Source: a virus
Strand: one strand, 5' to 3'
IMG/VR virus record: IMGVR_UViG_3300043449_002292
Span: 32,001 to 96,000 of that record
DNA length: 64,000 nt
A model generated the notes under the pieces. The model made no database searches and had not been told where the DNA came from. It saw only the letters and a program-made list of their open reading frames with translations. This document shows, in pieces, positions 2,465 through 28,132 of the stretch. The position numbers and the translations under genes are program-made. Every line of letters starts with the position of its first letter. Position 1 is the first letter of the stretch.

Positions 2465-3311
2465 ATGAATCCGGTGGTGGCTCTGGACGTTCCAATGATA
2501 TGTGATAGTTCTTGCTCAGTAAATTTTTAAGCTGCTTATTGAGCTTATCTGCGTGATCTGGGAACTGACTTTTCAGATAAGATTCTGCCTGATCGATAAC
2601 ATTCTTCTTCACATCAACGAGAGATGTGTAATTCTTTATTAGATTTGCAATCTTCTCGGTGAATACGTCCATGTTAATCTTTGGCTCTGGCTTCTCTTTC
2701 TTGGCTTCCTGCTCATACAGGACACGAAGGGAACGATGCCGAAAGCTTTCAGCGACAGCCTCGGCGTCAGCATCATCTGCTGCTTCCATACCAGCCACAA
2801 GTGCCTGATGAACCGCCGTCTTTCCAGCTTCACTGGATTTCGGAGGCGGTGGTTTTGCTGCGCCTGGTGCCGCGGGTGCCGCGGGTGCACCTGGGACGGC
2901 AGGAGCTCCTGGTGCGGCAGGGGTGGCAGCTGGAGCTGCCGCGGCGGCGCCTGCAGCGGCCATAGGGTCAGGGGTCAGAGCAGGCGCTGGGGTTGCAGAT
3001 GCGGCAGGAGCTGGTGGAGTCAAAGCGGGTGTCGGAGCCGCTGCGGCTGCAGGATCAGGGGTCAAAGCAGGGGCCGGCGTGGCAGCGGTGGCGGCAGGAT
3101 CTGCCGGAGGAGTCGCAGCAGCAGGATCAGTCGGAGGTGGCGTAGCAGTAGGATCAGTCGGAGGTGGCGTAGCTGGTGCTGCGGCAGCAGGGTCGGCGGG
3201 CGCGCCGGGCGGTGTAGGTGCAGCCTGCTCGTAGAGCTGTTTCGTGAGGCTGAGCCTATAACCCTCCTGAATGATTAAGCGGCGAATCTGAGATTTACTT
3301 ACGACTTTCAT
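2424..3311 (-). CDS. Pro/Ala-rich protein with IIREE-type leader, probable internal head protein
   Basis: MKVVSKSQIRRLIIQEG...LYEQ; ~130-aa PA/TP low-complexity linker. Confidence 0.75.
   Translation of the reverse strand: MKVVSKSQIRRLIIQEGYRLSLTKQLYEQAAPTPPGAPADPAAAAPATPPPTDPTATPPPTDPAAATPPADPAATAATPAPALTPDPAAAAAPTPALTPPAPAASATPAPALTPDPMAAAGAAAAAPAATPAAPGAPAVPGAPAAPAAPGAAKPPPPKSSEAGKTAVHQALVAGMEAADDADAEAVAESFRHRSLRVLYEQEAKKEKPEPKINMDVFTEKIANLIKNYTSLVDVKKNVIDQAESYLKSQFPDHADKLNKQLKNLLSKNYHISLERPEPPPDSYAVGAKGGGGGAA
2850..3225. repeat. Coding low-complexity repeats (ATPPPTDP, PAPALTP, PGAPAA)
   Basis: e.g. ggatcagtcggaggtggcgtagc occurs twice with a 27-bp period near 3123-3173. Confidence 0.8.
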
Positions 3312-4033
3312 TTTGATGCCTCCACCATCCGCTCAACCTTCCTGATACGATCCTCGATGATAGACCACTTAAGTTCCTTCATCATGGCAAAAACATATGA
3401 ACGTCGATCTTTCAGGTAATCTCGATAGTATGAATGCTCCCAACAGTCCAACACAACTATGGGGACCGAAGAGAACGGTATTCCAACGTTATGTAAATCG
3501 ACCACAACATTCATGTATCTCTTCAAGAAGAAATTATAGACTGTGACAACCCAACCGTTTCTTGAGCTGAGAGCACAGGCGATGAAGTCCCGTTGCCATG
3601 CGTCAAAGCTGCCAAAGTCTCTTTCAAGTCTCATATACGCTAGCGAATCCATAGAGACCGTAGAGCGTAAATCTGAGATATTCTCGAAAAACATTCCGTG
3701 AAGAAACGCAGCATTGAGATTATGAACTTCGTCAATTTTGAGACTACGGAATGCTGAATTGTTCGGGTTCGCAGCGTCACGATCAGCTGTGTCGAGGGCC
3801 GCGGACACCTCGTTCAAGGCCTTGGCGTAACCCTCCATCAGCTCCTGATGAGCAGTCTTATTTTCCTCGCTCAGCTTCTCGGTTGCCATATCGTACTTCG
3901 AAGCGTTTACAACGTAAGCCTCGGCGAGCTTTTCGGGAGCAGGACCAACCTTACGGGAAACAGCAAGAGATTCTTTTATGATCTCATTTATATCATCCTC
4001 ATTGATTCCGAGGATTCTCTGCTTTGTTTTCAT
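3308..4033 (-). CDS. sod: Fe/Mn superoxide dismutase with N-terminal extension
   Basis: DCWEHSYY (DxWEHxYY), ERDFGSFDAWQ, NGWVV, and His ligands in TAHQEL and FLHGMFF. Start moved to ATG 4033 because the track start 4108 overlaps the upstream gene. Confidence 0.9.
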   Translation of the reverse strand: MKTKQRILGINEDDINEIIKESLAVSRKVGPAPEKLAEAYVVNASKYDMATEKLSEENKTAHQELMEGYAKALNEVSAALDTADRDAANPNNSAFRSLKIDEVHNLNAAFLHGMFFENISDLRSTVSMDSLAYMRLERDFGSFDAWQRDFIACALSSRNGWVVTVYNFFLKRYMNVVVDLHNVGIPFSSVPIVVLDCWEHSYYRDYLKDRRSYVFAMMKELKWSIIEDRIRKVERMVEASK

Positions 4034-4040
4034 GTTAGTT

Positions 4041-4373
4041 TTAAACCTCAAAATCCCTTTCGAATTCATCGATTGTGTAAACCTGCGGCGACTGACCGGG
4101 AGAAACAATCGTCTGACCTGCTGTTGACGTGATCGGACCCGTCACATTCTCAGGAGAAATCAGGCTAACTTTCACCGCTCCGCCCTCATCCTTGCTAACG
4201 CTTTGAACCGTGAATTTCTGCTTGGTTTTCTTGTTCGTCACCTCGAGACCTGCGTCGACCATGACTTTTCCGCCAGCTCCTATCACGTCCATTTCGAGCA
4301 AGGTCGAAAACAGTCTGGACTCGAACTGCTCACGAATCAGGCCGATTACCTTTTTTTCTGACCGACTTCTCAT
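4041..4373 (-). CDS. Hypothetical virion-associated protein
   Basis: Leader VIGLIREQFESRLFSTLLE; coupled to neighbours. Confidence 0.7.
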   Translation of the reverse strand: MRSRSEKKVIGLIREQFESRLFSTLLEMDVIGAGGKVMVDAGLEVTNKKTKQKFTVQSVSKDEGGAVKVSLISPENVTGPITSTAGQTIVSPGQSPQVYTIDEFERDFEV

Positions 4374-5825: not shown

Positions 5826-6284
5826 TCAGATCAGTGCTATCTGGCGAACCTTTACACCCGCTTCTCTCAAGAGATCGATGCCTGACGTGTCACGATAGCG
5901 TTCGATGTAGACTATCTCATCGATTCTAGCATTAACAATCGCCTTCGCGCACATACGACATGGGCTGAGACTCACGTACATCTTCTTACGTTTCGGGCTG
6001 TTAAAGTCGAGTTTGATGAGAGCATTTACCTCGGCATGGATAAACCCTGATTCACCGGCGGCGGAGGATTCACGTGTGTTTGATCCGCCAGCGTGATCCC
6101 CGTTGTATCCGAGGGAGAGCAACTGCGTGTTATCATCCGTGACCACGATTGCGGCCACCTTAAAGTTGGGATCTGGGGATCTTTTTGAGATTGTTCGGAC
6201 TACGTCAGCCCAGATAAGATCCCAGCTGGGACGATCGTCGATTGGATTACAGCGTAAATCGTTGAGAAAATCGTTATGGGTCAA
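5826..6284 (-). CDS. dCMP deaminase
   Basis: GYNG, HAEVNAL and SPCRMC zinc-deaminase motifs. Confidence 0.92.
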   Translation of the reverse strand: MTHNDFLNDLRCNPIDDRPSWDLIWADVVRTISKRSPDPNFKVAAIVVTDDNTQLLSLGYNGDHAGGSNTRESSAAGESGFIHAEVNALIKLDFNSPKRKKMYVSLSPCRMCAKAIVNARIDEIVYIERYRDTSGIDLLREAGVKVRQIALI

Positions 6285-7129
6285 GCCCGCTCCTGATCAA
6301 AGATTGTCTCTATGTTAACATTTTTTGGCAGGCTGAAACCCGCTGCCTTTCGATGCCCACCTCCGCCGAACCTCTTGGCGACCTCGCTCACGTCGGAATC
6401 CTCATGATGAGCGCGGAGGCTCACCTTCACCTGCCGCGTCTCGTGGTCATAGAACCAGATCACCGCGAAGTCGCACTTGGGAGACAGGGCCGCCCCAATC
6501 TCCGACATCCAGTGCGATGAGTTAACGACAAGAACGTCCTTTCCATCTATCTTACGTGGTGTGGCATGCTTCGCTATCTTTGAGATGACAGTCTTCGAAT
6601 ACGCGAGGATGTAAGCCCCTCGTTCCTGGGCGTCATCCACCGCAGAATCGTCGAGGTATTTATCGAACTCCTCGAAATCGAATGGGACCATGTCGAAGGC
6701 TGCCGCGAACTCCTTTGAGTATGGGATCTGCCACTTCCAGAGATCACGGTCCTCGATGAATTTTATCATGCGAGGCGCCTCCTTACCTGGATGGAAGAAA
6801 TTCCAGGCAAGCATCGCACCGCTGTGATTCATATCAAATCGGGTGCATGAGACGTCGTGAAGCTCAACCATCGCTGACTTGTGGTGATCGATGATGAGGA
6901 AGTTGCGTGCTTCCTTTATCAGCTGCTTCGTGGTCACGTTGTCATACGAGAAATCCAAAACCACGACGTTCTTACCCTTCACGTCGGGTGGGGTTTCACC
7001 ATACTTCGCTGCGTGATATTCGGCTCGATCTCCAAGGAGCTTCCAGGCAGAGTAAGCTGCGCCGAATCCATCAGTGCAGCTCGCGTGGTAAATAACAAGA
7101 TCGACGCTTGAAGGTTCCAGCATGCTCAT
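6281..7129 (-). CDS. DHH/DHHA1 phosphoesterase (NrnB-like)
   Basis: YHASCTDG, VLDFS, IDHH, GGGGHRKAAG. Confidence 0.9.
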   Translation of the reverse strand: MSMLEPSSVDLVIYHASCTDGFGAAYSAWKLLGDRAEYHAAKYGETPPDVKGKNVVVLDFSYDNVTTKQLIKEARNFLIIDHHKSAMVELHDVSCTRFDMNHSGAMLAWNFFHPGKEAPRMIKFIEDRDLWKWQIPYSKEFAAAFDMVPFDFEEFDKYLDDSAVDDAQERGAYILAYSKTVISKIAKHATPRKIDGKDVLVVNSSHWMSEIGAALSPKCDFAVIWFYDHETRQVKVSLRAHHEDSDVSEVAKRFGGGGHRKAAGFSLPKNVNIETIFDQERA

Positions 7130-7149
7130 GTGCTCTCCGGACTAAAGTA

Positions 7150-7725
7150 TTATCCTACAGTCCCGTTCGAATTGCACATGATTGGATGGTGGCGAAAACA
7201 CCTTGGTTCATAGAGATTTTTTCCGCCAACCTCGATGAGCTTATCATCATCGACTAGCTTCGTAGTATAAAAAGCGTCATCACCGCAAATCGGGCATACA
7301 GCTGGACATTTCTCGATCCTCGTCGCGTAGGGAAGAAGCTCGCTGACCTCATCGAACGGCTCACACTTCGCGCTAAGGTCAAGGGTTGCGATTAGAACGG
7401 AAGTCCCATTCTTGATGATCTGGCGAACCGCCGGTGCCACCCCGTCTATCATGAAGGCTTCATCTATGGCCACCACATCGACATCATTCTGAAGGTCATG
7501 CAGGTGGTTCAGAATGCTTTTCCCGGATGTGACGCAGCGAGCTGGCCACTTAGCTCCGGAGTGAGTGCAGATCTGAGATTCTTCATAACGTGAGTCCATT
7601 GACGGCTTGTAAACTTGCACGTTACGTTCTTGAAGTTTGAGACGCTCCAACGACGCAATCAAGCGCGAAGTTTTAGAGCCCCACATCGGACCGCAGAAGA
7701 TGATCAGCTCTGGATTTTTAGCCAA
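7150..7725 (-). CDS. tdk: Thymidine kinase (TK1 family)
   Basis: GPMWGSKT P-loop, IDEAFM, CPIC...RCFRH zinc site, IEVGG...YEP lasso. Confidence 0.88.
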   Translation of the reverse strand: MAKNPELIIFCGPMWGSKTSRLIASLERLKLQERNVQVYKPSMDSRYEESQICTHSGAKWPARCVTSGKSILNHLHDLQNDVDVVAIDEAFMIDGVAPAVRQIIKNGTSVLIATLDLSAKCEPFDEVSELLPYATRIEKCPAVCPICGDDAFYTTKLVDDDKLIEVGGKNLYEPRCFRHHPIMCNSNGTVG

Positions 7726-8125
7726 GCTTCACCGCCCTTCCGTAATCATCCTCGAGCCTTTTCGGAACATCATCAACACGATCGCCTACCTCTATCACTT
7801 GACTATCCTCAAGAGCTTCGAGCCTGTATGGGCACTCAGATTGCACATACAGCACGTCCATAGGACGCAGGACCTTCATTCGAAAAGGATGCTTTTCTGA
7901 ATTCTCCAGAGTTTTTTCATTTCCAAATGAAACTTTAATTTTCCCACTAAGAACGAAGAATACCTCATTCTTAACGTTGTGATACTTCAAGCTTGTGCGC
8001 TCTCCCTTCCTGATGTGGATGAGCTTACCGTGAATATGACTCAAGGCATGCCAAACCCGAGTTTCGCCCCACGGTTTGCTTTCGGATATTGAGCTTGAAA
8101 CCCAAGCTTCCTTAGGCGCTGGCAT
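7718..8125 (-). CDS. Cupin, resembling the C-terminal type II mannose-6-phosphate isomerase domain
   Basis: KPWG, TSLKYHNVKNEVFFVLSG, RLEDDYGR; probable start ATG 8125. Confidence 0.8.
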   Translation of the reverse strand: MPAPKEAWVSSSISESKPWGETRVWHALSHIHGKLIHIRKGERTSLKYHNVKNEVFFVLSGKIKVSFGNEKTLENSEKHPFRMKVLRPMDVLYVQSECPYRLEALEDSQVIEVGDRVDDVPKRLEDDYGRAVKLG

Positions 8126-9128
8126 TGAGGCCCCACCAATCGAGGGTGAGCTGTAAACCCTCTTCAAACTGCACCTGAGGTTCCCAGCTGATCGCCTGCT
8201 TCGCGATTGTCACATCAGCGAGCGTGTCCCGAACGTCGCCGAGCCGGGCCGGTGCATTGCTCACCTCGAGGTTCGGGAACTTCAGACGGAGCATATCGAG
8301 AACCTCGATATTCGCGAGTGACTTACCGGATCCCACGTTAAATGCATGACCGCGAAGGGGATGCTCACACTCAGCGGCAAGCCGGTTCGCACGTGCGACG
8401 TCCTTCACGAAGACGAGATCGCGAGTCTGGTAACCGTCACCGTCGGAACGAAGCGGACGTCCCTCCTTCAGGGCGGAGCACCACGCTGCGACTGCAGTGG
8501 AGTAGGGTGACTTACCGTCCTGGCCCGGTCCGTAAACATTGAAGTAACGAAGGCAGACGCTACGCTGATCGTAGAGACGACCGAAGAGGGTCAGATAGTC
8601 CTCGATCATCCGCTTCTGAAGACCGTAGGGCGACTGTGGGTTCGAAGGCGCGAACTCCGTGGTCGGCAGCTGGTCGATCTCTCCGTAGACTGCAGAGGAG
8701 GAGGAGAAAACGAACTTCGTTCCCGTTCCACGGATCGCGTCTAGAAGGGCGAGAGTTCGAGTGACGTTGAGGTCATTCGACTCGAAAGGATGCTCAACCG
8801 AGAAACCCACACGCGGCATCGCTGCAAGGTGGAAAATCACACCATAACGACCCTCCTTTGAGCGCTCCAGGACCTGCTGACATGCGAAGTCACCCTCGAT
8901 CACAAGAATCGAGCCCTCCACGCGCGAGGACTCAGGGTGCTTACTCTCAAAGGCATCGAGCAGATCCGCCGGGGAAGCTCGGAAGCTAAGACCGATAAGA
9001 GCATCGAGGGAGCCATTCGACATATCATCTACGATGTCTATCGTGTAACCATTCTCACGCAGCTCCCGAACAACATGGGAACCGATAAAACCACAACCAC
9101 CCGTAACCAGAGCACGCTTGCTATTCAT
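8112..9128 (-). CDS. NAD-dependent NDP-sugar epimerase/dehydratase (extended SDR, GalE/WbpP-like)
   Basis: TGGCGFIG, HLAA, SSSAVYG, YGLQK, LRYFNVYGP, GDGYQTRD. Confidence 0.93.
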   Translation of the reverse strand: MNSKRALVTGGCGFIGSHVVRELRENGYTIDIVDDMSNGSLDALIGLSFRASPADLLDAFESKHPESSRVEGSILVIEGDFACQQVLERSKEGRYGVIFHLAAMPRVGFSVEHPFESNDLNVTRTLALLDAIRGTGTKFVFSSSSAVYGEIDQLPTTEFAPSNPQSPYGLQKRMIEDYLTLFGRLYDQRSVCLRYFNVYGPGQDGKSPYSTAVAAWCSALKEGRPLRSDGDGYQTRDLVFVKDVARANRLAAECEHPLRGHAFNVGSGKSLANIEVLDMLRLKFPNLEVSNAPARLGDVRDTLADVTIAKQAISWEPQVQFEEGLQLTLDWWGLNASA

Positions 9129-9131
9129 TCA

Positions 9132-10115
9132 TCACCTCTTGAAAAAATGATAACCCTTGAAATCAGTCGAGAGCAGAAATCTAATTGACAGCTTTTCATC
9201 CTTCATCTTCCTCGCTCTAACCGAGCAGAGGATGTCACACCAATCCCTGATCAATGACTGTGAAAGCTGTTCATCAGTCTGATCGATCAGTTTCGGGGAG
9301 ACGAATACCATCCCGTCCCTGATCACGCCTTCGTTGGTCGAACGAACAGCCTCCTCAACGCGTATCAGATCGACTATCGGAAAGACCTTCGGATACGGCT
9401 GCATCGGACGACCGAAGTTATCGCTGGAATTCGCGATCGCGTCCAGCATCTCGAAGTCCCTCTCGTAGCAGTGGAGCGAGTTCGAGGTGTGGACATACTC
9501 ACCGAGCTCGACCCCCAGCTCATTCGCCATGATCTCCTGCATCGTGGTGAATGCCGGAACGTCGTAGGCGATGCCGAGGATGATATCGCTCGACCGCATG
9601 TTGACGTGGAGGTGGAGCTTGCCCTCACGGATAAAGAACTGGAGCGCGAGGGTGCACGGGACATCCTTCACTGCGTGGAGGGAGTCGTCAGGGGTCCTGA
9701 TGTGGATCACCGCCCGACGGGAGTCGGGATCCTTCCGGAGCTCCTCCTTCACGTAATCCCACTGGACGATACCGCCTGCCGCGATCCGATCATGCGGTCG
9801 GAAGATTCGAGCCCCGTAGGCGGAGTTCGCCGTCTTGCCGTCATCGCTGATTCCCTTCCAGAACGATGCGTAATACGAGATCCACTCCGTGGAATCGTTA
9901 CCGCTCAGATACCACAGAGTCTCCGCGACGAAATATGACAGGGAGAAATTTCGAGCTTCCACAAATGGGAGACGATCACGCGGATCCTTAATCCTGAACT
10001 GAACGCCCAGTTTCTCCTTGATCTTCATCCCACGAGGAGATGAAACAAACTCAGACTCATCCCTGACCATCCTACAAAGATCAATGTAGGCCTGCGTGAA
10101 ATTACCGTATGTCAT
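9132..10115 (-). CDS. Thymidylate-synthase-fold enzyme with a dCMP-type specificity residue (dCMP hydroxymethylase-like)
   Basis: DSRRAVI, DVPCT, MRSSDIILGIAYD (Asp at the E. coli ThyA Asn177 position), SLHCYE; ATG 10115 overlaps the kinase stop (ATGA). Confidence 0.88.
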   Translation of the reverse strand: MTYGNFTQAYIDLCRMVRDESEFVSSPRGMKIKEKLGVQFRIKDPRDRLPFVEARNFSLSYFVAETLWYLSGNDSTEWISYYASFWKGISDDGKTANSAYGARIFRPHDRIAAGGIVQWDYVKEELRKDPDSRRAVIHIRTPDDSLHAVKDVPCTLALQFFIREGKLHLHVNMRSSDIILGIAYDVPAFTTMQEIMANELGVELGEYVHTSNSLHCYERDFEMLDAIANSSDNFGRPMQPYPKVFPIVDLIRVEEAVRSTNEGVIRDGMVFVSPKLIDQTDEQLSQSLIRDWCDILCSVRARKMKDEKLSIRFLLSTDFKGYHFFKR

Positions 10116-10639
10116 GTATTCATCTCCAACCACGTGAGAATCTCGGTGATCTCCCTGTTAAGATTCTCGTCATCGACCCAAAGTGTGAGGCACTCGCATT
10201 TCGTCCACGCTTGGAATTGCTCATAGAGACCGTCCAGCTTCCTGAGGGCTTCCTCGTCAATGTAATCGTGCAGGTCGTCACGTATCCCAGAGTAGCTCTT
10301 GCGACGGCAGATAACGAACTTACCGCCAGCCTCAGCAAACTTGTCATCAATCTTCCTGAGGATCTCAAAGTCAGTGTCCCTGTTGAAGAACTGCGCATAC
10401 ACCCACTCGGAGGCATGATTTCGGTCCATGATCACGCTGGTTCCCGTCTGCAGGAGGAACTCGGTCAGGAACGTGGATCCGTAAATCAGCAGATTCTTGA
10501 AGTAGCTCGGATCGTGAAGATCCGCATACCATTCGCCCTTGTTCTTGAAAGTAGGAACTCCGAGAAGTCTCGATAGCTCAGCGGCGATCTCGGACTTACC
10601 CGTCATGTCTGGACCCTCGAGTCCGATCAAAATTGCCAT
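10112..10639 (-). CDS. dNMP kinase (thymidylate-kinase-like)
   Basis: EGPDMTGKS P-loop, MDRNHASEWVY. Confidence 0.85.
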   Translation of the reverse strand: MAILIGLEGPDMTGKSEIAAELSRLLGVPTFKNKGEWYADLHDPSYFKNLLIYGSTFLTEFLLQTGTSVIMDRNHASEWVYAQFFNRDTDFEILRKIDDKFAEAGGKFVICRRKSYSGIRDDLHDYIDEEALRKLDGLYEQFQAWTKCECLTLWVDDENLNREITEILTWLEMNT

Positions 10640-10640
10640 T

Positions 10641-11696
10641 TCAGCCTCTCTTCGCGTGTTGCTCGATTATATCAATCTTATGCCCAGGGCTAAAATCGAC
10701 AACCTTGCGAAGGGCATTTTCCTGCTGTTCGATAATTTCGACTCTCTCCTTCACGCTCATCTGCGAGATTCTCATAACGCAGCGAATCACATCTGATGGA
10801 TCATCAACGAGAAAATCGCCTAAGCCGACGGGTCTAGCGTGAACGTATTCATTCGGAATCAGTGAGATGACGCCGGCTTGGATCGCCTCCGTGAATCGCA
10901 TCGTGATGTTGCCGTAAGGTGTGTAATCATCACGTGTGATGTGGGTCACGGCCACGGAGTTGTTGATGACGCCGAAGATCTCCTTGTAAGCAAGTCGATG
11001 ACCGAAAGCGATGTTCGGATTCTCGCGAAGCAGGATGCTTGGATCCTTGCGCTCAGGGCTCCTCTCAAGCCAGTTACCCCAGACCTTCGTCTGGATCCCA
11101 CGCTCCCGTAGTGCCTGACTTGGGTTCGAGTAATACTTTTTGAACTGCGGGTCACGATCGTAGTTGTTACCCACATAGGTGTAGTTGTATGAATACTCAG
11201 CGGGCTTGAAGAGCCGTCGTGCCGAGGAAGCCCATGGCATCGAGATTCGAGAACGCGTCTGCTCACGTGGATTGATGCAAGCGTCCGCGAGCTGAGCATT
11301 CGGCCAGCGAAGCTCCTCCTCCGGGGTCATCTTCAGATCGCCGTCATGGATGATGATGGGAACGCCCTTCTTGTGATAGTGGTCGAGGAGCTCACACTGC
11401 CGTCGGTAGTCCGGCTCGGTCGCCCGATCGCCCCCGAGGCTTGCATCATTCTTCCAGGTCGGCCAGCGCCACTCAACGAAGAGAACGTCACCTTCCGGAA
11501 ATCCAGTATCGTCGTATTCGACACCGGAATAGGGTTCGTCGTCTCGACGCTTCTGCACCTGGACCATGGTGTGGCCGCGGCGCTGCATCTCATCGACCAG
11601 ATCAACTCGACCACCACGATAGTGGTCGGGGGTGTTCGAAACAGTTTGCTTTTCGAAAGGGGTTACAAAGCCCCAGAATGAGTATAGAATTCGCAC
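10641..11696 (-). CDS. GT-B glycosyltransferase resembling T4 beta-glucosyltransferase
   Basis: 351 aa; C-terminal NITMRFTEA...FLVDDPSDVI...ERVEIIEQQ resembles my recollection of the BGT C-terminus (FITLRVWET...FYVNNRAELI...RKEMLSIQ); gene context. Confidence 0.7.
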   Translation of the reverse strand: MRILYSFWGFVTPFEKQTVSNTPDHYRGGRVDLVDEMQRRGHTMVQVQKRRDDEPYSGVEYDDTGFPEGDVLFVEWRWPTWKNDASLGGDRATEPDYRRQCELLDHYHKKGVPIIIHDGDLKMTPEEELRWPNAQLADACINPREQTRSRISMPWASSARRLFKPAEYSYNYTYVGNNYDRDPQFKKYYSNPSQALRERGIQTKVWGNWLERSPERKDPSILLRENPNIAFGHRLAYKEIFGVINNSVAVTHITRDDYTPYGNITMRFTEAIQAGVISLIPNEYVHARPVGLGDFLVDDPSDVIRCVMRISQMSVKERVEIIEQQENALRKVVDFSPGHKIDIIEQHAKRG

Positions 11697-11704
11697 CTTT
11701 TACC

Positions 11705-14700
11705 TCACATGACCTTGATTTTCTTACCTTTTGTCGACAAACCGAAGTCGGAACGATCGACCTCAGCAACGCACAGCGTGTACGGCTCGAAACCAATCTT
11801 ACCGTCCCAATCCCACATGAACATCTTTTCCGTGTTTCCAGCCTCACCCATCACCTGAAGCATGAGGTAGGGCTTACCGTTCTTCGTCTTCTTCTCGACC
11901 GAGCTCACGACGACGAACCAGTAGATGTCAAGTCTCTCCCAGTTATCGATGGAGTAAACCTCCTTGTCCTTGAATTTCTGACGAAGTTCTGGGGAGATGA
12001 GGGAGACCGGATCCATCTTACCCGAGAGCTCGATCTGCATGAGAGCCATCTCACGACGAGTCCACTCGGGCATGCCCTCAGTCTCGACGAGGAGCTCACG
12101 GAAGCGCTTGACACCACGCTGCGGATCCTTCTTAGCCCATTTCTTGATGTCCTCCGCGTTCTCGATAAGAACATGATGCATCTGCTTCCAGGATGAGAAC
12201 TGCTTACCCTTACCGACAATGCCCATCGATTCGAACCCACCGGCTTTGATGAGAGCCTCAAGGGCCCGACGATTGAACTTCGAGGGTCGCCACTGACCGT
12301 CTTCCTTCCATAGCATCTCCTCGATGGACCTATACGGACGGCATGCCACGATCTCCTCGATCGCTGTCTCACCGACGCCCTTGATTGTGTTGAAGGACGG
12401 AATTAGGAGCTTACGCTCAGCATCGACGGACCATTGGTTCGTGGAGAGGTTGATATCGACGTTGCCGATATCATAGCCCATCTTCTTCACGTCGGAGATT
12501 GCCTGGGCACGGTCGTCCGGGTTTCCGATCATCGATTCCATGTAAGCGCAGAGCCACTCAGCCTCGTAGTATGTCAGGAGCCAGGCGCAGTAGTAGGAAT
12601 CGATCGCATAGGCGAGAGCGTGGGAGAGGTTGAAGCCGTAACCTGCGAAGAAGAGGATGTCGTCCCAGAGCTTCGAGGCCACCGACTCCTTGATCCCGTT
12701 CCCGACAGCGCCGTTGACGAAGCTGTCCTTCATCGCCTTCGCCTTCTTCATCGACTCTTCAGGGTTACCGCCCTGACGCTTCAGAATGTTCTTTCGGACC
12801 TTATCACACTCGGACTTCGGGAATCCTGCCACCACGTTGCAGAGCTGCATGAGCTGCTCCTGGAAGATGATGCAGCCGAATGTTGGCTCCAGCACCTGCT
12901 TGATGAGTGGGTGCTTGTAATCAATGTTACGCGGATTCGCCTTCGCCTCGAGGTAGAGCTTATCAACCTTCGCCGCTAGCGGACCTGGCCGGAAGACTGA
13001 AGTGAGTGTGGCGATGTCGATGATCGATCGTGGCTTCGCATTCTGGAAGAGACGCTGGGCACCCTTGCTGGTGAGCTGGAAGACACCCGGGGTGCGGGTC
13101 GTCGCCTCATGGTAGACGTTCTCATACACTCTCTGATCATCAAAATCGAGCACGTCGTTCGACATATACTTATCGAACCATGCCTTGACGTCCTTGAACT
13201 TCGGGTCCTTGAGGCCATGATGACGTTCAAGGATGAGCTCGATCGTTCGACGGATCATGCGCAGAGTTTCGAGCCCGAGGAGGTCGAACTTAACCCAACC
13301 AAGCATCTCGAGATGCTTGTAGTTCATGCCCTCGACCCAGGGGGTCTGCTGCTCGCCCTTCGCCATGATGAGTGGCATCCGCTCCTGGATACGTTCGGAG
13401 ATGATGACACCTCCGGCATGACGACCGAGGGCCTTATTCTGCCGGAAGAGAACCTTGATCGACTCGGAGACCTGCGGGTACTTGTCGATGAATTCCCGGA
13501 AACTCGGGCTGTGCTCGTAGCTCTCCTCGAACGTCAGGACGAAGAGGTTCTTGTCGTCGCCGACCTTGCGGGTCGCATCCATGACCTCCTTCTCCACGGT
13601 CTTCAGGGAGGCATTCACCTCCTCGAGCGGGATGTCGTACAGTCTCGAGATATCGCGAACGAGGGTCTTCAACTTGAAGGTGTTGTAGTTCGAGATTGGA
13701 ACGATGTTCTCACCGCCGAACTTCGAACGAAGGATCGCCAGGAGCTGATCGCGGTTCTCAACGTCAGTATCGATGTCAGGTAAACCCTCACGGTCCGGAG
13801 ACAGGAACCGCTCGAAGAGCAGACCATACTTGATTGGATCAACATCGGTGATCCCGAGCACGTAGCAGACGAGCGAGCCCGCACCGGAACCTCGACCAGG
13901 ACCGATGAACATCTCCTCCTTCGCAGCCGAGATGATCTCCTTCATCGTGAGGAAGTAGGAGGCGAAATCCTTCTGCTTGATAACATCGATCTCGTAGTCT
14001 GCACGCTCAACGTAGTCCTGACGGCCAGCGAGACCCTTCGCGGCAAGACCCGCCTTCACAGCATCAACAAGTGCCTCATTCGCGGTCTTACCCTTCGGGA
14101 TGACGTAACTCGGAAGCTTAACGGAGCGATCAGGCTGCACGTCACCGATCTCCTCATGGGCGAGATGCCAGGTGCGCTCGACAGCCTTACGGATGAGATC
14201 CTCCTGGCCATGGTAGAACGCTTCGGTCTGCCGGGATGTAAGGAACTCGTCCCAGACCTGGGACGCGTTCTTCGGGTAGAGCTCACACTTCAGCTGGTCC
14301 TTGCTCTTCGGGATTGAATCAGCCGAAAGCTCGGCGTAGTTGAGCCAACCGAGCTTCTTGTAGATCTCACGCTCACGCCAGTGCTCAGGGCGGGCGTAGT
14401 GGGAGTCGCAGGTGACGACAAGCTGATCCGTCATGCCCTGCCGCTGGGCAAACTCGATGAGAGCGCGGTTGACGATGTGCTGCGCCGGGAGCCGATTGAA
14501 CTGAAGCTCCAGCATCACGTTCTTCCGACCAACGGCCCACGCGAGGCCATCGAAGGAGTTACCGATGCGGTTGATGACGCGCTCCATCATCGATGGATCG
14601 TCGAGTAGTCGGCTGTTGAGACTGTCGAAGCTGTGTTCCTGCAGCTCACGGAAAACCTCAAAGGCAAGCGGACCACCGACGCAAGCAGTCGAGACGATGA

Positions 14701-15373
14701 AGTTGTCGTCCTCCTGTGCCTCCTTCAGCATCCGAAGATCGACACGCGGGAACTTGTAGAAACCCTCGGAGTATCCGCGGCTCACAAGACCGAAGAGTCG
14801 CTCGAGACCCTTGCTGTGTCGAGGTAGGACCACGAGATGGTGACGACGGTTGATCGGATTGAAGTGCTTTGTGGACTTCGTCTCGTCCTCATTCTCGATC
14901 GTGAGGGCCGAGTTATCGGTGTCGATGCCGATCGTCTCGTCATTCTCATCGGTTGTGGCAACAATGGGAGTCACCACATTCTCGGGCTTTACCTTCGCTT
15001 TCGCGTGGCTCTTGCGATCACGCTTGAGCTGCTGCCACTCATCGTACTCACCGCGCCAGGCATCGAGATCCGGGTGGATATACATCTCACAACCTGGGAT
15101 GAGCTTGAAGTCCTTCCCAGCCTTTCGCATCTTATCGACGTGCAGCCACGCATGACCGAACGAGTTCATGTGACCGTGGTTCGTCATCGACCAGCCGTCG
15201 AGGCCATTCTCCGCGCAGAAGTCGATGTGCTCCTGTGGAAGACCGAGTCCGTCGAACACGCTGAAGCCGTCATGGGAATGCAAGCCGAAGAACTTCTCCG
15301 GACGCTTCAATTCGCTTCCATCTGCCATTTTATCTCCTGGGTCAACTATATCAGGACCCAGGATGGTTTGCAC
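11705..15373 (-). CDS. dnaE: DNA polymerase III alpha subunit (family C)
   Basis: PHP domain HSH..FSVFDG, GPGRGSGAGSLV, FERFL, PDIDTD, KFDLLGL, YGFNLSHA; no intein seen. Confidence 0.97.
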   Translation of the reverse strand: MQTILGPDIVDPGDKMADGSELKRPEKFFGLHSHDGFSVFDGLGLPQEHIDFCAENGLDGWSMTNHGHMNSFGHAWLHVDKMRKAGKDFKLIPGCEMYIHPDLDAWRGEYDEWQQLKRDRKSHAKAKVKPENVVTPIVATTDENDETIGIDTDNSALTIENEDETKSTKHFNPINRRHHLVVLPRHSKGLERLFGLVSRGYSEGFYKFPRVDLRMLKEAQEDDNFIVSTACVGGPLAFEVFRELQEHSFDSLNSRLLDDPSMMERVINRIGNSFDGLAWAVGRKNVMLELQFNRLPAQHIVNRALIEFAQRQGMTDQLVVTCDSHYARPEHWREREIYKKLGWLNYAELSADSIPKSKDQLKCELYPKNASQVWDEFLTSRQTEAFYHGQEDLIRKAVERTWHLAHEEIGDVQPDRSVKLPSYVIPKGKTANEALVDAVKAGLAAKGLAGRQDYVERADYEIDVIKQKDFASYFLTMKEIISAAKEEMFIGPGRGSGAGSLVCYVLGITDVDPIKYGLLFERFLSPDREGLPDIDTDVENRDQLLAILRSKFGGENIVPISNYNTFKLKTLVRDISRLYDIPLEEVNASLKTVEKEVMDATRKVGDDKNLFVLTFEESYEHSPSFREFIDKYPQVSESIKVLFRQNKALGRHAGGVIISERIQERMPLIMAKGEQQTPWVEGMNYKHLEMLGWVKFDLLGLETLRMIRRTIELILERHHGLKDPKFKDVKAWFDKYMSNDVLDFDDQRVYENVYHEATTRTPGVFQLTSKGAQRLFQNAKPRSIIDIATLTSVFRPGPLAAKVDKLYLEAKANPRNIDYKHPLIKQVLEPTFGCIIFQEQLMQLCNVVAGFPKSECDKVRKNILKRQGGNPEESMKKAKAMKDSFVNGAVGNGIKESVASKLWDDILFFAGYGFNLSHALAYAIDSYYCAWLLTYYEAEWLCAYMESMIGNPDDRAQAISDVKKMGYDIGNVDINLSTNQWSVDAERKLLIPSFNTIKGVGETAIEEIVACRPYRSIEEMLWKEDGQWRPSKFNRRALEALIKAGGFESMGIVGKGKQFSSWKQMHHVLIENAEDIKKWAKKDPQRGVKRFRELLVETEGMPEWTRREMALMQIELSGKMDPVSLISPELRQKFKDKEVYSIDNWERLDIYWFVVVSSVEKKTKNGKPYLMLQVMGEAGNTEKMFMWDWDGKIGFEPYTLCVAEVDRSDFGLSTKGKKIKVM

Positions 15374-16036: not shown

Positions 16037-16474
16037 TCACAAAACGAACGTCAGCAAGGTATTTATCTTTTTCATTCTTTCGCGATGATATTCTCTTCTT
16101 TCAGAAGTCCAACTTGATTTGGACCGCTCAGACATTTGCGTCTTTCTTTCTTCGTTACCTTCCCAGTGACCTTTCACGATGTAACTGATTTTCTTCTTAA
16201 CATCTTCTCTTCTTGTTGGGTTCTTATCTCCAAGAAGATACTTTTGTTTGTTCTCTTCGTCAGACCAAAACTTCTTCTTGATCTCTGACATTGTTTGAGA
16301 AACAGGTCTAGTCTCGATTCCATGATGTTTCATCCATCTGCAAATCGTAGATACGCCTGTGTTGTTTTCAAGAGCTATTTCTTTTTGTGTCTTCCCAAGA
16401 TCGCAATATTCACGATGAAGCCACTCTTTATCGACCCAAGGACCCGATTTTCTCATTGAAACTCCTACGCTCAT
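16037..16474 (-). CDS. AT-rich HTH/NUMOD3-like DNA-binding protein, possible homing-endonuclease remnant
   Basis: KEWLHREYCDLGKTQKEIA...STICRWMKHHGIETR HTH; basic REDVKKKIS/ERKTQMSE repeats; visibly lower GC than its flanks; no nuclease motif. Confidence 0.6.
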   Translation of the reverse strand: MSVGVSMRKSGPWVDKEWLHREYCDLGKTQKEIALENNTGVSTICRWMKHHGIETRPVSQTMSEIKKKFWSDEENKQKYLLGDKNPTRREDVKKKISYIVKGHWEGNEERKTQMSERSKSSWTSERREYHRERMKKINTLLTFVL

Positions 16475-18582: not shown

Positions 18583-20715
18583 TTACAGCTTCTGGACGAC
18601 GAGCTGGTCACCAATCTCGACCGCGAAGGCGAACTTCACGCCAGCCTTGCCACCGTCGAACGAGTAGTCGGCGGAAGCAGGGGCCGCGAGCTCGGCCACG
18701 GAGCCGGAGCGGAGCAGCTGACCGTTGAAGAACACCATGGAGTTGTCCTTCGTGAGACCCGCGAAGGTCAGATCGCCCATGCCGGCGCCCGCGGTGACGT
18801 CGACAGCGGTCTCGGCTGCAACACCGGCCGCCGCGACGAAGAACGCCTTCTCGGCGCCGCCGCCCGCGGCGATCGCGTTGAACGCGCCGAGGATGGAGTC
18901 GACGGTCGGGTAGGACGTCGCGAAGGTCGCCCACTCACCGGAGTTCGCGAGCTTGAGGCCGGAGGTCGCGCTGTTGAGCAGCTGTGAACCACGGTAAGCA
19001 TCGTCGAACTTGATGAAGCCAGCAGCCACCGAGGAGCTCATGATGAAGTCACCGCTGCCGCCCTTCGTGACGCGCTGCTCGCCGCTGCGGTCGAGCGTTA
19101 GGCCATCGGCGCCGTTGAGGTTCGCCTTGACGCCCCACATCTCGGACCAGCGGTCGGTCGAGAGACCAACCTTGAACGCATTGGGGACGGAGGGCTTCAG
19201 CGAGCCGGAGATCGTCATCAGGTCGACGAAGTTGTAGGTGAGGCCCGCCTCATCCTTCATCGCGCCGGTGGCGTCGACGACGTAGAGGCGCTGCTGAGTG
19301 TCACCATCGATCTTGATCTGATTCGCGGTCACGCCGGCGTTGAAGTCAGCAACAGCACCGTTGACCGTCAGGCCGTTTCCGATGAGGGCCGCACCGCCGA
19401 TGTCGAGACCGGCCGAGCCGCTGATACCGCCCGCGACGGCGAGCTTCCCGCCGTCGAAGGTGAGGCTCGCCTCATCCTTGATCTCGTTCGACGGGCCGAC
19501 GATGTAGAGGCGCTGGGGCACGTCACCGTCGATCTTCATCTCAGGAGCGGAGACACTCACGGCAGAGCGGATCGCGCCTGAGCCGCTAATCGCCTGGTTG
19601 AACTCCCAGCCAGCCGAGGAGTTGTTCCAGATGATGGTCTTGTCGGTGGCTCCCCTGAGGGTGATACCGCCGCCAGCTGCAGTCACGTCCGTCGGGGTAG
19701 CGACAGAACCGAGCTCGACGTTCTTGTCATCGACCGTGAGGGTCGTTGAGTTCACCGTTGTGGTCGTTCCATTGACAGTGAGGTCACCCGCGACCGTGAG
19801 GTGCGAGGAGACGCTCATCGCGCCGGTGACGAAGAGCGTCGAACCGTCGAAGTTGAGGTTCGCCTCATCCTTCATCGATCCATCAGCATCGACGATGTAG
19901 AGGCGCTGGGCCACGTCGCTGTCGATCTTGATCGCGGAGGCGGAGAGCGTTCCGGCCACGTCAACGATGCCGGCGAAGTCAGCCTTGCCGGTCACGTCGA
20001 GAGTGCCACCAACGGTAGCAGCGCCGTCGACTGCAACCGAGGCGCCCTGGAGGGCTCCCGAGCCGCTGACAACGCCGACGACCGCGAGTTTGCTACCGTC
20101 GAAGGTGAGGCTCGAGGTGTCCGCGATCTCGTTGGATGCACCGACGAGGTAGAGGTTACCAGCCACGTCACCGTCGATCTTGATCTCGTTGGCGGTGATA
20201 CCGGCGTTGAAGTCAGCGACAGCGCCGGAGACGGTCATTCCGTTTCCGATCGTCGCTGCGCCGTCGACCGCGACGGAAGCGCCCTGGAGGGCGCCTGAGC
20301 CGCTGACGATTCCGACGACCGAGAGCTTGTCGCCGCTGGCGTCGTAAACGAGGCCTGCATCATTCGCGAGGTCGCCGGACACGGACGCGAAGACGAGGGA
20401 GCCTGCTCCTGCGGTGAGATTCTCAACGCGGGCGGCCGAACCGGTGATCGAGCCAACGACGTCGAGGTCCTTGAGGACTTCCATCTTGGCGGCGGGGGCC
20501 GAGGCGCTGATGTGCGCGGCGAGGTCGAGGAGCTGAACGTTTACGAATGAACCCTCCTGCTCCTTCCACTCAGCGCCGATGATGCTGCCGATCTGCTCGG
20601 TAAGAGCCTCGATATCGCCGGCGAGCGTCCCGAGCTCGAGCTCGGACTTGATCTGCTCGGCGCGGATCTTCGTCATGGATCCCGCGCGGGTATCCAGATC
20701 TGTTCTGTTAGCCAT
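18583..20715 (-). CDS. Fibre-like virion structural protein with internal repeats
   Basis: KID(G/S)D...LY.V repeat x4; GDLTVNGTTTTVNSTTLTVDDKNVELG...GGGITL..ATDKTI segment typical of phage fibres; C-terminal FNGQLL. Confidence 0.75.
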   Translation of the reverse strand: MANRTDLDTRAGSMTKIRAEQIKSELELGTLAGDIEALTEQIGSIIGAEWKEQEGSFVNVQLLDLAAHISASAPAAKMEVLKDLDVVGSITGSAARVENLTAGAGSLVFASVSGDLANDAGLVYDASGDKLSVVGIVSGSGALQGASVAVDGAATIGNGMTVSGAVADFNAGITANEIKIDGDVAGNLYLVGASNEIADTSSLTFDGSKLAVVGVVSGSGALQGASVAVDGAATVGGTLDVTGKADFAGIVDVAGTLSASAIKIDSDVAQRLYIVDADGSMKDEANLNFDGSTLFVTGAMSVSSHLTVAGDLTVNGTTTTVNSTTLTVDDKNVELGSVATPTDVTAAGGGITLRGATDKTIIWNNSSAGWEFNQAISGSGAIRSAVSVSAPEMKIDGDVPQRLYIVGPSNEIKDEASLTFDGGKLAVAGGISGSAGLDIGGAALIGNGLTVNGAVADFNAGVTANQIKIDGDTQQRLYVVDATGAMKDEAGLTYNFVDLMTISGSLKPSVPNAFKVGLSTDRWSEMWGVKANLNGADGLTLDRSGEQRVTKGGSGDFIMSSSVAAGFIKFDDAYRGSQLLNSATSGLKLANSGEWATFATSYPTVDSILGAFNAIAAGGGAEKAFFVAAAGVAAETAVDVTAGAGMGDLTFAGLTKDNSMVFFNGQLLRSGSVAELAAPASADYSFDGGKAGVKFAFAVEIGDQLVVQKL

Positions 20716-24256: not shown

Positions 24257-24640
24257 TCAGTATCCGTCTTTTAGTCTTCGACAGATTTTCTCGTGCTTCT
24301 TGAGGTATGCTTCATGCAGCTCATCAGGAGTGACACCCACGAGCTTCAGTGTCGTAAAGAAGTACTTCATCGCATCGACGATCTCCTCAAGGAATGCCTC
24401 ACGATCGAGATGAGGAACGTCGGTCTGACGATGAGGCTTGGCATTCTTCAGCTCCTGCAGAGCCTCGAACATCTCCTCCACACCGCGAAGGGTCACGTCA
24501 CGGACAAGCGTCTGTGATTGCTTCGTCGAGAGATCGATCGGCCACTGGGGGTAGTAACCCTCGAAGCGTTCACAAAGGAGCTGCATGAACTCCTCGCGAA
24601 GCTCGAACATCTGATCGAGCTTGTCAGTTGACGTCGACAT
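24257..24640 (-). CDS. All-alpha NTP pyrophosphatase (dimeric dUTPase / T4 gp56 dCTPase-like)
   Basis: VEEMFEA, FLEEIVDA, C-terminal RRLKDGY; probable start 24640. Confidence 0.8.
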   Translation of the reverse strand: MSTSTDKLDQMFELREEFMQLLCERFEGYYPQWPIDLSTKQSQTLVRDVTLRGVEEMFEALQELKNAKPHRQTDVPHLDREAFLEEIVDAMKYFFTTLKLVGVTPDELHEAYLKKHEKICRRLKDGY

Positions 24641-24866
24641 TCGCCATGCCCTCGGCGGCGAGCTCATCAGCCTTGTCCGAGAGACGCTGAACAGCATCCA
24701 GGAAGGCCTGATTGTCAGCGTCGTTGATCATGAGCTTGCTCCCGTCGACCGTCAGTCGAAGGGTCCTGAGATTATCGATGATGTCAGTTCCAGTCAGCAG
24801 GGCGAGCTGAAGAAGGTCGACGATGCGGACGATAGCCTGATCAGAAAGTGTAACTGTCTCGTTCAT
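24624..24866 (-). CDS. Hypothetical protein
   Basis: MNETVTLSDQAIVRIVDLLQLALLTGTDIIDNLR; AGGAG RBS. Confidence 0.7.
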   Translation of the reverse strand: MNETVTLSDQAIVRIVDLLQLALLTGTDIIDNLRTLRLTVDGSKLMINDADNQAFLDAVQRLSDKADELAAEGMANVDVN

Positions 24867-24916: not shown

Positions 24917-25726
24917 CTAGTTCTGTCTTGTCGGCGCCCACCAGGTGGTTCGACCGTCGAGTGTCTCTTCCCTGATTACCTCTTCTCCATCTTCGTCTTT
25001 AGTTCTTCCATAGCAGAGAAAAGCTTCTCCGTAGCCACCCTCGTTGTTATCAAAGTCCTTATATGATTTGATCGTTGCCCCCTGAGACTGGTATGAATCC
25101 CGGAGCACTCTCTTGATGCTGTCATTGAGAGCTTCGAACTCCTCTAGACTCAGGGAATCAACCTTTCGGTGCGGAGAGAGCCGGGCAAGCCAGAGCGAAT
25201 CGGCCTTCACGTAATTACCAACGCCAGCGATGATCCCCTGATCCATCACCGCCTCGGCAAGGGTCCACTTCGGTTTCTTCAAGAGGGACTCCTGGAACCG
25301 CTCATGGCTCACGTCCTCGGCCAGCATGTCAGGACCCAGGGTCCTTAGCTTGTCAGCCAGCTTCCGCCGCCCCCGGACCCACTTCAGAGTCCCAAAGTTA
25401 CGGGTGTCATTGTAGTAGACATCCGTTCCATCGTCGAGGCTCAGACGCATTCTGGCGTGGCGCGATGCACTTCGTGACCAATGACCCGTCATGCCCAGAG
25501 TCGACCAGATCGAGGAGTCCCCGCCGTCGAGCAGGATGTAGATGAACTTGCCATGGCACCCAGCGCCGACGATCCGCTTGGGCAGCTCAGAAACAAGTTC
25601 GTCGTAACCGTCGAAGGGTCGCTTATCGTAGCGTCCTGACAGGATCTTCAAACCCACGATCGTTCGGTCTGTGAGAGCTCGAGCGAGACCCTCGGCAGCG
25701 AGCTTGCATTCGGGACCTTCAGGCAC
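24917..25726 (-). CDS. Fpg/Nei family DNA glycosylase/AP lyase with a zincless finger
   Basis: MPEGPE, HGKF, LGMTG, DTRNFG, LGPD, GVGNY; C-terminal GRTTWW with no Cys zinc finger. Confidence 0.93.
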   Translation of the reverse strand: MPEGPECKLAAEGLARALTDRTIVGLKILSGRYDKRPFDGYDELVSELPKRIVGAGCHGKFIYILLDGGDSSIWSTLGMTGHWSRSASRHARMRLSLDDGTDVYYNDTRNFGTLKWVRGRRKLADKLRTLGPDMLAEDVSHERFQESLLKKPKWTLAEAVMDQGIIAGVGNYVKADSLWLARLSPHRKVDSLSLEEFEALNDSIKRVLRDSYQSQGATIKSYKDFDNNEGGYGEAFLCYGRTKDEDGEEVIREETLDGRTTWWAPTRQN

Positions 25727-27499: not shown

Positions 27500-28132
27500 C
27501 TAGTATCCGAACGCCTCAATCGTATGCTGAAACGGCTTACCCTCGATCTCTCGAACCTGCTGCAGCATCTCCTCCGCTAGCCAGCAGATCTCGCGTTGAG
27601 CGTCTGGCTTCATTCGAAGTCCGAGGAAATGGTTGAAAGATCGCCAGTTGAACATCACGTCCATGGTGATCTGGTTGCCGTATGGAAGGTAGAAGCGTGC
27701 TGATTCTTTGGCTCGCTTTCGATCCATTCCCCCGTCAACAAGCCTCTGCAAGGTCTCATGGTAGCGCATGATCGCGTCTTCCATAAATGCGATATACCTT
27801 GACTGCTCCTCGATCGACCAATCCTTTGGCAGGTAGTACTTGTCATCCTTCAGCTCCTTGTACCGAGCCGACTCGGCATTGATCGAGACCCCGATACGAT
27901 GCTTGAGGAGCTGGACATGGACGCTTGTATCCACTGTTACTAGGAATTGCAGGCTCGACTTTTCAAAAACCGTGTGATGGCCCTGCTCCGCAAGCATTTT
28001 TAGAAGTTGCGGAATTCTGTTACGCTTATCATTGGTAATTTCTCGTGATGTCGACGTCCACGCAGACAATGCGTGCGTTTCGTCTGATCCGTACCACCCA
28101 GTAAGCTGAACCTTGTTATCCTGAAATGACAT
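27500..28132 (-). CDS. thyX: Flavin-dependent thymidylate synthase
   Basis: GHHTVFE, KHRIGVSINAESARY, AKESARFYLP, NWRSFNHFLGLR..DAQREI. Confidence 0.93.
   Translation of the reverse strand: MSFQDNKVQLTGWYGSDETHALSAWTSTSREITNDKRNRIPQLLKMLAEQGHHTVFEKSSLQFLVTVDTSVHVQLLKHRIGVSINAESARYKELKDDKYYLPKDWSIEEQSRYIAFMEDAIMRYHETLQRLVDGGMDRKRAKESARFYLPYGNQITMDVMFNWRSFNHFLGLRMKPDAQREICWLAEEMLQQVREIEGKPFQHTIEAFGY

Follow-up and report, generated by a model that had tools for sequence, protein, structure and literature searches.

What does the thymidylate synthase (TS)-fold enzyme encoded in the replication operon of an uncultured phage make? The window examined here is a stretch of 64,000 nucleotides, comprising bases 32001–96000 of the 142,859-bp IMG/VR viral contig IMGVR_UViG_3300043449_002292, which is estimated to be about 43% complete; given this size and completeness, the source of the contig is a large phage in the "jumbo" range. 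The gene in question lies at positions 9132–10115 on the minus strand and encodes a protein of 327 amino acids. At issue is whether its product is thymidylate or a methylated, hydroxylated or hydroxymethylated cytidine monophosphate. The sequence comparisons and structural models presented below suggest that the enzyme is likely to be a folate-dependent deoxycytidylate (dCMP) 5-hydroxymethylase, and that it would feed the production of DNA carrying glycosylated 5-hydroxymethylcytosine (5hmC). The pairing of a dCMP hydroxymethylase with a DNA glycosyltransferase (GT) is textbook biology of the T-even phages. Specialised TS homologues dedicated to 5hmC have also been reported in jumbo phages (PMC7824862) and in metagenomes (PMC8670742).

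Active-site residues of the TS-fold enzyme

An ATGA joins the start codon of the open reading frame (ORF; ATG at 10115) to the TGA of the kinase gene that precedes it, and the ORF ends with a stop codon at 9132. An in-frame GTG is present upstream at 10133 and its use is unlikely because homologues begin at ATG. The protein matches Pfam family PF00303 (E 5.6e-33) and the thymidylate synthase families of PHROG (up to 2e-55), and its best sequence match among PDB chains is MilA, an enzyme of mildiomycin biosynthesis (E 1e-47, HMMER). Homologues are numerous, with more than 1,200 detected at E <1e-10, and about 120 of them show 64–86% identity and occur on contigs of up to 252 kb. For comparison we used E. 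coli ThyA, T4 gp42, SPO1 gp29 and RB69 gp48, all taken from annotated records. In the small alignment with these reference enzymes the residues of the TS-fold core, C154, E65, Y100, R174, H215 and Y217 (C146, Glu58, Tyr94, Arg166, His207 and Tyr209 of ThyA), are all invariant, and in wider family alignments they are invariant except for R174 and, in the alignment of closer relatives, C154.

The substrate of TS-fold enzymes is reflected in the residue at the position of ThyA N177. The sequence-only reading of this DNA had aligned the query segment RSSDIILGIAYD with ThyA R166–N177, thereby placing an Asp where enzymes acting on deoxyuridylate (dUMP) have Asn, and this register was borne out both by MAFFT alignments with the four reference enzymes and by HMMER alignments to PDB chains, which agree. 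R174, D177, G181 and D185 of the query (separated by S-S, I-I-L and I-A-Y) stand opposite R166, D169, G173 and N177 of ThyA (separated by S-C, V-F-L and L-P-F). Asp185, encoded at 9561–9563 on the minus strand, thus occupies a site that is Asn in the dUMP enzymes ThyA and SPO1 gp29, and Asp in T4 gp42, RB69 gp48 and MilA, as the sequence-only reading had stated for enzymes of the gp42 type. Likewise, the catalytic Cys154 is found within V-P-C-T where ThyA carries A-P-C-H, confirming the earlier remark that PCT replaces PCH.

Conservation of the cytosine-specifying Asp was followed in several sets of homologues. One of these, used repeatedly below, consists of 62 related IMG/VR loci whose TS-gene copies are 47–78% identical to the query and whose neighbouring genes were counted within 10 kb; the pattern used to select them included a Ser-x-Tyr motif. 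D185 is retained in all 86 aligned homologues and in all 62 related viral loci, and Asp occupies the N177 position in 160 of 163 rows of an alignment combining the query, its relatives, the reference enzymes and the best representatives at 50% identity. On this alignment evidence, the occurrence of D185 is not due to chance.

Databases label the ORF as a thymidylate synthase and, if this were accurate, the gene would simply supply dTMP. Such an assignment is hardly credible given that the query carries the changes N177D, H147T, L143D and W83I (ThyA numbering), and that the NCBIfam ThyA equivalogs all score far below their cut-offs (for example, the best with 105 versus 327 bits). Moreover, a flavin-dependent thymidylate synthase, ThyX, is encoded at 27500–28132 on the minus strand (PF02511, E 1.6e-38 and 2.3e-37). 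The supply of dTMP is therefore independent of the TS-fold gene, and as a rule a jumbo phage has TS or ThyX but not both (PMC7824862).

If the substrate is a cytosine nucleotide, the nature of the transferred group has to be established. The sequence-only reading held that sequence cannot distinguish hydroxymethyl, methyl and hydroxyl transfer, and this view can be revised since published signatures do separate the three, and the query has the hydroxymethylase pattern and lacks that of the hydroxylases. A signature for hydroxymethylation was deduced from the ternary complex of T4 dCMP hydroxymethylase (dCH) and combines an acidic residue (Asp or Glu; Asp145 in T4) at the third position ahead of the catalytic Cys with a Ser/Thr-x-Tyr motif (T4 Ser94 and Tyr96); Asp145 activates a water molecule and its replacement in D145N abolishes hydroxymethylation (PMC6400193). 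The query carries both elements, D151-V-P-C154 (codons at 9654–9665, minus strand, corresponding to ThyA L143 to C146), with Asp151 as the putative water-activating residue, and S98-A-Y100. In the wide alignment neither D151 nor Y100 varies, and within the close family S98 does not vary either.

These residues also bear on the possibility that the enzyme is a dCMP methyltransferase of the XP12 type, producing 5-methyl-dCMP, with the neighbouring GT acting on some other target. N177D alone is reported to convert ThyA to a dCMP methylase (Liu and Santi 1992), and the folate-site residues are intact in the query. Enzymes that form a methyl product carry a large hydrophobic side chain at position L143, and the query has Asp there, not the water-excluding hydrophobic residue expected of that type, in a comparison that included no XP12-type sequence. 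The loss of hydroxymethylation in T4 D145N and the presence of the Ser-x-Tyr motif in the query argue in the same direction. Furthermore, an O-transferase, which requires a hydroxyl group, lies near the TS gene in 58 of the 62 loci, and Pfam and PHROG scans of the cluster revealed no TET-like oxygenase. We consider methyl transfer quite improbable.

A third product, 5-hydroxy-dCMP, is formed by TS homologues that depend on flavin and O2, including RB69 gp48, DLP3 gp80, RL38J1 gp216 and others (Lee et al. 2026, PMC13326640). The query could belong with these enzymes, in which case the GT would join a sugar to 5-hydroxycytosine through an ether bond, and it matches them in three residues: Asp for N177, an acidic side chain where ThyA has L143, and Thr147. 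D169N has been proposed as the diagnostic residue of 5-hydroxy-dCMP synthases (PMC13326640), and all four such enzymes that we aligned (RB69 gp48, Thanatos-2, Maestro and RL38J1 gp216) exhibit D169N and G173V and have lost W80, which is replaced by Ile or Arg. The query, in contrast, retains the folate site, with the pterin-binding Asp177 at D169 (codon 9585–9587, minus strand), Gly181 at G173 and Trp86 at the W80 position. These differences, together with evidence from the tree and from the neighbouring genes given below, make a 5-hydroxy-dCMP synthase improbable.

Positions 177 and 147 were found to discriminate best between TS homologues from cytosine-modified and unmodified metagenomic contigs (PMC8670742), and at both the query shows the "modified" state. 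It is identical to T4 gp42 at R126, R127, L143D, C146, H147T, S167, D169, G173, N177D, W80, Y94, H207 and Y209 (ThyA numbering), and positions 143, 147, 167, 169, 173 and 177 are invariant across all 62 related loci.

MilA-type architecture and phylogenetic placement

An AlphaFold2 (AF2) model of the TS-fold protein (predicted local distance difference test, pLDDT, 94.6) was compared with solved structures, and those of the TS family yielded Z scores of 25–38. The best match by ten Z units over the next was MilA (5jnh), with Z 37.8, a root-mean-square deviation of 2.0 A over 302 residues and 34% identity, residues 1–327 of the model being superimposed on residues 4–323 of MilA. The runner-up was the HY126 dCMP hydroxylase AfhB (Z 27.1), a second place that lends some support to 5-hydroxy-dCMP formation, and ThyA scored about 25. 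The query also carries a C-terminal helical extension of about 90 residues that is absent from T4 gp42 and which, given the full-length match to MilA, is a MilA-type feature.

MilA (PDB 5JNH, 5B6D, 5B6E and 5JP9) shares with the query, in addition to this full-length architecture, the Asp residues at N177 and L143 and the C-T that follows Pro or Ala. As it is the closest relative of solved structure, in both fold and sequence and including the C-terminal extension, one may ask whether the phage enzyme, like MilA and BcmA, hydroxymethylates the ribonucleotide CMP and serves to build a small molecule of the nucleoside type or to modify RNA, and not DNA. The preference of MilA for CMP is determined by Ala176 and Lys133, and the A176S/K133R variant switches to dCMP (PMC5175136). 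In contrast to MilA and BcmA, which have Ala and Lys at these sites, the query carries the deoxyribo-type residues Ser175 (ThyA S167) and Arg133 (ThyA R126), in line with enzymes acting on dCMP and dUMP. Ala at the S167 position occurs in only six of the 163 aligned rows, four of which also have Lys at R126, and none of them falls within the clade of the query. Moreover, whereas MilA belongs to a bacterial antibiotic cluster, the phage gene is located in a replicase operon whose other products include a dCMP deaminase and two kinases, one for nucleotides and one for thymidine, and no MilB-like N-glycosidase was seen. A ribonucleotide substrate is accordingly very improbable.

The relationship to T4 gp42 (dCH; PDB 1B5E and the 6A9A series) is of a different kind. 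All the active-site residues compared are alike, including Ser-x-Tyr, and both phages have a GT of the beta-glucosyltransferase (BGT) type nearby and a separate route to dTMP. The overall identity, however, is only about 26–29%, gp42 is shorter (246 amino acids) and lies in another part of the tree, and T4 employs a gp1-type deoxynucleoside monophosphate kinase and a family-B polymerase.

The sequence-only reading had suggested a phylogeny including characterised members of the superfamily as a check on the assignment. In the quick maximum-likelihood tree of 72 sequences built here, for which the backbone is not resolved and long-branch warnings were given, the four 5-hydroxy-dCMP enzymes form a starred clade of their own (98) with the query outside it. 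The query itself falls in another starred clade (99) with seven close relatives, within a weakly supported group (81) of Asp-bearing metagenomic proteins, and no sisterhood to a characterised hydroxymethylase, either T4 gp42 or MilA, was recovered.

The 5-hydroxy-dCMP enzymes RB69 gp48, DLP3 gp80 and HY126 AfhB (PDB 9IQC and 9IQU; PMC13326640) resemble the query in their TS fold, N177D, acidic L143 position and Thr147, and in having genes for a Tmk-like kinase and a GT close by, and they differ from it in D169N, G173V and W80I/R, in using flavin and O2, in their length of about 235–260 amino acids and in forming a separate clade.

Among cultured phages, the only match extending over 96% of the query was gp319 of Bacillus phage G (33% identity), which has the same full-length build and the same substrate-defining signature residues. 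It differs from the query in carrying Gln at position 127, and it groups with the dUMP enzyme SPO1 gp29 (97, starred) despite its Asp177. The phage G locus (L013, 228463–239461) encodes, close to gp319, the alpha-glucosyltransferase gp313, a homologue of the kinase (gp315), the dCMP deaminase gp317 and DnaE (gp329), and on the basis of these sequence similarities phage G may also make glycosylated 5hmC. To our knowledge, the product of gp319 is uncharacterised.

The neighbouring glycosyltransferase and the exchangeable transferase slot

A GT was expected near the TS gene by the sequence-only reading, where it was taken to favour a product bearing a hydroxyl, and a GT-B glycosyltransferase of 351 amino acids is indeed encoded one gene away, at 10641–11696 on the minus strand. 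Its AF2 model (pLDDT 94.6) has T4 BGT 1c3j as the top Foldseek match (E 1e-9), with the T4 alpha-glucosyltransferase (AGT) 1xv5 also ranking high. Structural comparison with VIA gave Z 22.9 over 306 residues for T4 BGT 1nzd, with T4 AGT and other GT-B enzymes lying within 1–2 Z units. A profile hidden Markov model (HMM) of the GT family, searched against 20 targets, matched T4 BGT (4e-10) and also a GT located two genes from a TS homologue of Enterococcus phage nattely; among the same 20 targets it did not match the transferases of RB69 and RL38J1 that act on 5-hydroxycytosine, which is a further point against 5-hydroxy-dCMP as the product. Alignment of the family with BGT by hhalign yielded 68% probability and E 4.7e-05 over 131 columns, confined to the C-terminal, UDP-binding domain of this two-Rossmann fold, where the R-x-x-E of the BGT sequence ITLRVWET falls over the invariant R267 and E270 of the GT. 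A direct BLASTP comparison with T4 BGT was not significant (E 0.12), and the link comes from profile and structure comparison. Taken together the results are suggestive of a distant relative of T4 BGT among DNA glycosyltransferases, with other GT-B families within 1–2 Z units.

Examination of the 62 related loci indicated that this GT occupies a position that can be filled in several ways. In 58 of them exactly one type of O-transferase lies near the TS gene and two types were never seen together. The BGT-like GT-B is the most frequent (39 loci). A protein of about 430 amino acids without a Pfam match is present in ten (for example, L025:8672–9994 and L035:7031–8323), and Atlas features and structure relate it to GT4/GT1 GT-B folds (TM 0.7–0.8). 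A different GT of 380 amino acids occurs once, and eight loci carry a carbamoyltransferase of the NodU/TobZ type (L008:6278–10005, L023, L041, L044, L047–L049 and L057). The carbamoyltransferase, which never occurs alongside a GT, forms a module with a 218-amino-acid protein and, in most of these loci, an ATP-grasp protein with a C-terminal part resembling the EcbF/BcbF phosphatases. In the remaining four loci no transferase was found near the TS gene, and two of these run into the end of their contig. An array of interchangeable O-transferases around one conserved enzyme is as expected if that enzyme supplies a cytosine bearing a hydroxyl.

The carbamoyltransferase loci bear on the nature of this hydroxyl. 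On modified metagenomic contigs studied by MetaGPA, a carbamoyltransferase encoded beside TS homologues converts 5-hydroxymethyldeoxycytidine (5hmdC) to 5-carbamoyloxymethylcytosine, and it acts neither on 5-methyl-dCTP (5mdCTP) nor on 5-hydroxymethyl-dUTP (5hmdUTP) (PMC8670742). The eight relatives, with TS proteins 47–64% identical to the query, are likened to these contigs by family and not by sequence, and both sets have a dCMP deaminase and a pyrophosphohydrolase co-occurring with the TS homologue; the window differs in carrying a GT and not a carbamoyltransferase. By analogy, a hydroxymethyl group is what the carbamoyltransferase loci suggest, and the pairing of relatives of the TS gene with a transferase of a type acting on 5hmdC also argues against 5-hydroxy-dCMP.

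Operon organisation, proposed pathway and further genes

The genes of the module (5826–15373) all read from the minus strand, and most of them adjoin or overlap one another. At the head of the operon lies a gene for a protein of 1222 amino acids (11705–15373) which, from its sequence and from synteny with phage G gp329, is inferred to be a DnaE-type DNA polymerase III alpha subunit; counterparts with 56–91% identity lie upstream of the module in 59 of the 62 loci. Just upstream of this operon a small ORF resembling HNH endonucleases was observed at 16037–16474 (phrog_7545, 1.5e-09). Between the GT and TS genes lies that of a Tmk-like P-loop nucleotide kinase of 175 amino acids (10112–10639), identified from phrog_761 "thymidylate kinase" (1.3e-09), weak matches to PF02223 and TIGR00041 and its homologue gp315 in phage G (E 3.7e-08), and found in 52 of the loci.

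On the other side of the TS gene, read from the ORF coordinates, the next gene begins three nucleotides after the TS stop (stop at 9132, start at 9128). It encodes an extended short-chain dehydrogenase/reductase (SDR) of 338 amino acids (8112–9128, minus strand) similar to the nucleoside diphosphate (NDP)-hexose 4-epimerases GalE and WbpP (PF01370, 1.8e-48; TIGR01179 GalE, 1.8e-50, below the cut-off). Its PDB matches are headed by UDP-glucose 4-epimerase 4zrm (2.5e-51), followed by WbgU, WbpP and MoeE5. The SDR gene is present in 58 of the 62 loci, in most of them directly adjoining the TS gene, and it stays beside the TS gene also in the eight carbamoyltransferase loci that lack a GT (loci within L006–L074). 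Such a tie to the hydroxymethylase gene, even where a carbamoyltransferase is the only transferase, is a hint that the SDR may do more than supply a donor sugar to the GT.

A small cupin of 149 amino acids, resembling the C-terminal part of phosphomannose isomerase (7718–8167; weak PF07883 and PF01050; phrog_7851; 29 loci), follows; its Atlas neighbours were generic phage cupins only, and no PDB sequence match was found. The remaining genes of the module encode a thymidine kinase (7150–7725; PF00265, 6.7e-37; 37 loci), a DHH/DHHA1 phosphoesterase (6281–7129; phrog_4771, 3e-80; 35 loci) and a dCMP deaminase (5826–6284; PF00383, 1.8e-19; phrog_174, 1.1e-37; 55 loci). Of the whole cluster, the phosphoesterase gene is the most strongly conserved, with 86–89% identity in the closest loci where the TS gene shows 73–78%.

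Outside the module, at 24257–24697 on the minus strand, a protein similar to nucleoside-triphosphate pyrophosphohydrolases (phrog_12184, 5.5e-14; phrog_173, 7.4e-08) is a candidate dCTPase, and a pyrophosphohydrolase is present in 32 of the 62 loci. It yielded no Pfam and no PDB sequence match, and searches of the 143-kb contig, itself about 43% of the genome, for MazG (PF03819), dUTPase (PF00692) and T4 gp56 produced nothing. Beside this gene, at 24917–25726, a DNA glycosylase of the Fpg/Nei type is encoded (H2TH, 2.5e-17).

The fold and active-site residues of the enzyme, its partner genes and their synteny are what the analysis shows, and from them we infer a substrate, a product, a sugar and an order of steps as follows. 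By homology with T4 gp42 and MilA, Cys154 would attack C6 of dCMP while Asp185 protonates and holds N3/N4 of the cytosine. Methylenetetrahydrofolate (CH2-THF), bound by Asp177, Gly181 and Trp86, would then provide an exocyclic methylene, to which water activated by Asp151, with Ser98 and Tyr100, would add in place of hydride to yield 5-hydroxymethyl-dCMP. The translationally coupled Tmk-like kinase is predicted to form the diphosphate, after which 5hmC would enter DNA through an NDP kinase of the host and the DnaE replicase of the phage, and the BGT-like GT-B would glycosylate the hydroxymethyl group in the DNA. ThyX, dCMP deaminase and thymidine kinase would provide dTMP separately, and the pyrophosphohydrolase possibly removes dCTP. 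The donor could be a C4-epimerised UDP-hexose, UDP-N-acetylhexosamine (UDP-HexNAc) or UDP-uronate generated by the GalE-like SDR, and because a GalE-like epimerase adjoins the TS gene the sugar is probably not plain glucose. A more far-reaching idea, which we put forward only tentatively and rather doubt, is that the large, uncultured phages of this widespread clade make a cytosine hypermodification not yet described, such as galactosyl-, N-acetylgalactosaminyl (GalNAc)- or uronosyl-5hmC, altered further by the cupin; the DNA base would then be a new one.

Several points weigh against a dCMP 5-hydroxymethylase feeding glycosylated 5hmC. The 5-hydroxycytosine phages RB69, DLP3 and RL38J1 have the same three genes together (Tmk-like kinase, GT and TS homologue), the tree with its poorly resolved backbone does not place the query as sister to any characterised hydroxymethylase, and the residue signatures are correlative and based on few characterised enzymes, with an XP12-type dCMP methylase missing from the comparison set. 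In addition, the dCTPase assignment is weak, coming from PHROG only and with no match to T4 gp56, MazG or dUTPase models. Finally, the contig covers only about 43% of the genome of this uncultured phage.

The chemistry proposed is known and so is this way of disguising phage cytosine. What is new is a member of MilA-type architecture, as yet uncharacterised, in a clade of uncultured phages that is widespread, and the interest lies in the probably non-glucose sugar and in a transferase slot that can be filled by one of several enzymes. If the assignment is correct, decorated 5hmC takes the place of cytosine in the DNA of a common group of large, uncultured phages, which would affect the sequencing of phage DNA, its resistance to restriction and CRISPR nucleases, and host finding. 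The clade would also offer a clean set of natural sequences on which to try the published residue rules for telling methyl, hydroxymethyl and hydroxyl formation apart in the TS superfamily, and the mutually exclusive O-transferases around a conserved hydroxymethylase would constitute a compact source of candidate DNA-modifying enzymes. The shared full-length architecture also connects MilA, an enzyme of antibiotic synthesis, with a family of phage proteins.

Some further genes of the window were noted. A protein of 710 amino acids (18583–20715) shows a weak rifampin ADP-ribosyltransferase motif (PF12120, 1.6e-05, 24 residues) that is probably not meaningful. A GlnII-type glutamine synthetase is encoded at 28334–29368 (NF041605, E 1e-144, 481.6 bits against a cut-off of 500), and a protein of 266 amino acids at 3308–4108 carries the C-terminal domain of Fe/Mn superoxide dismutases (5.5e-18) and shows about 60% identity in related loci.

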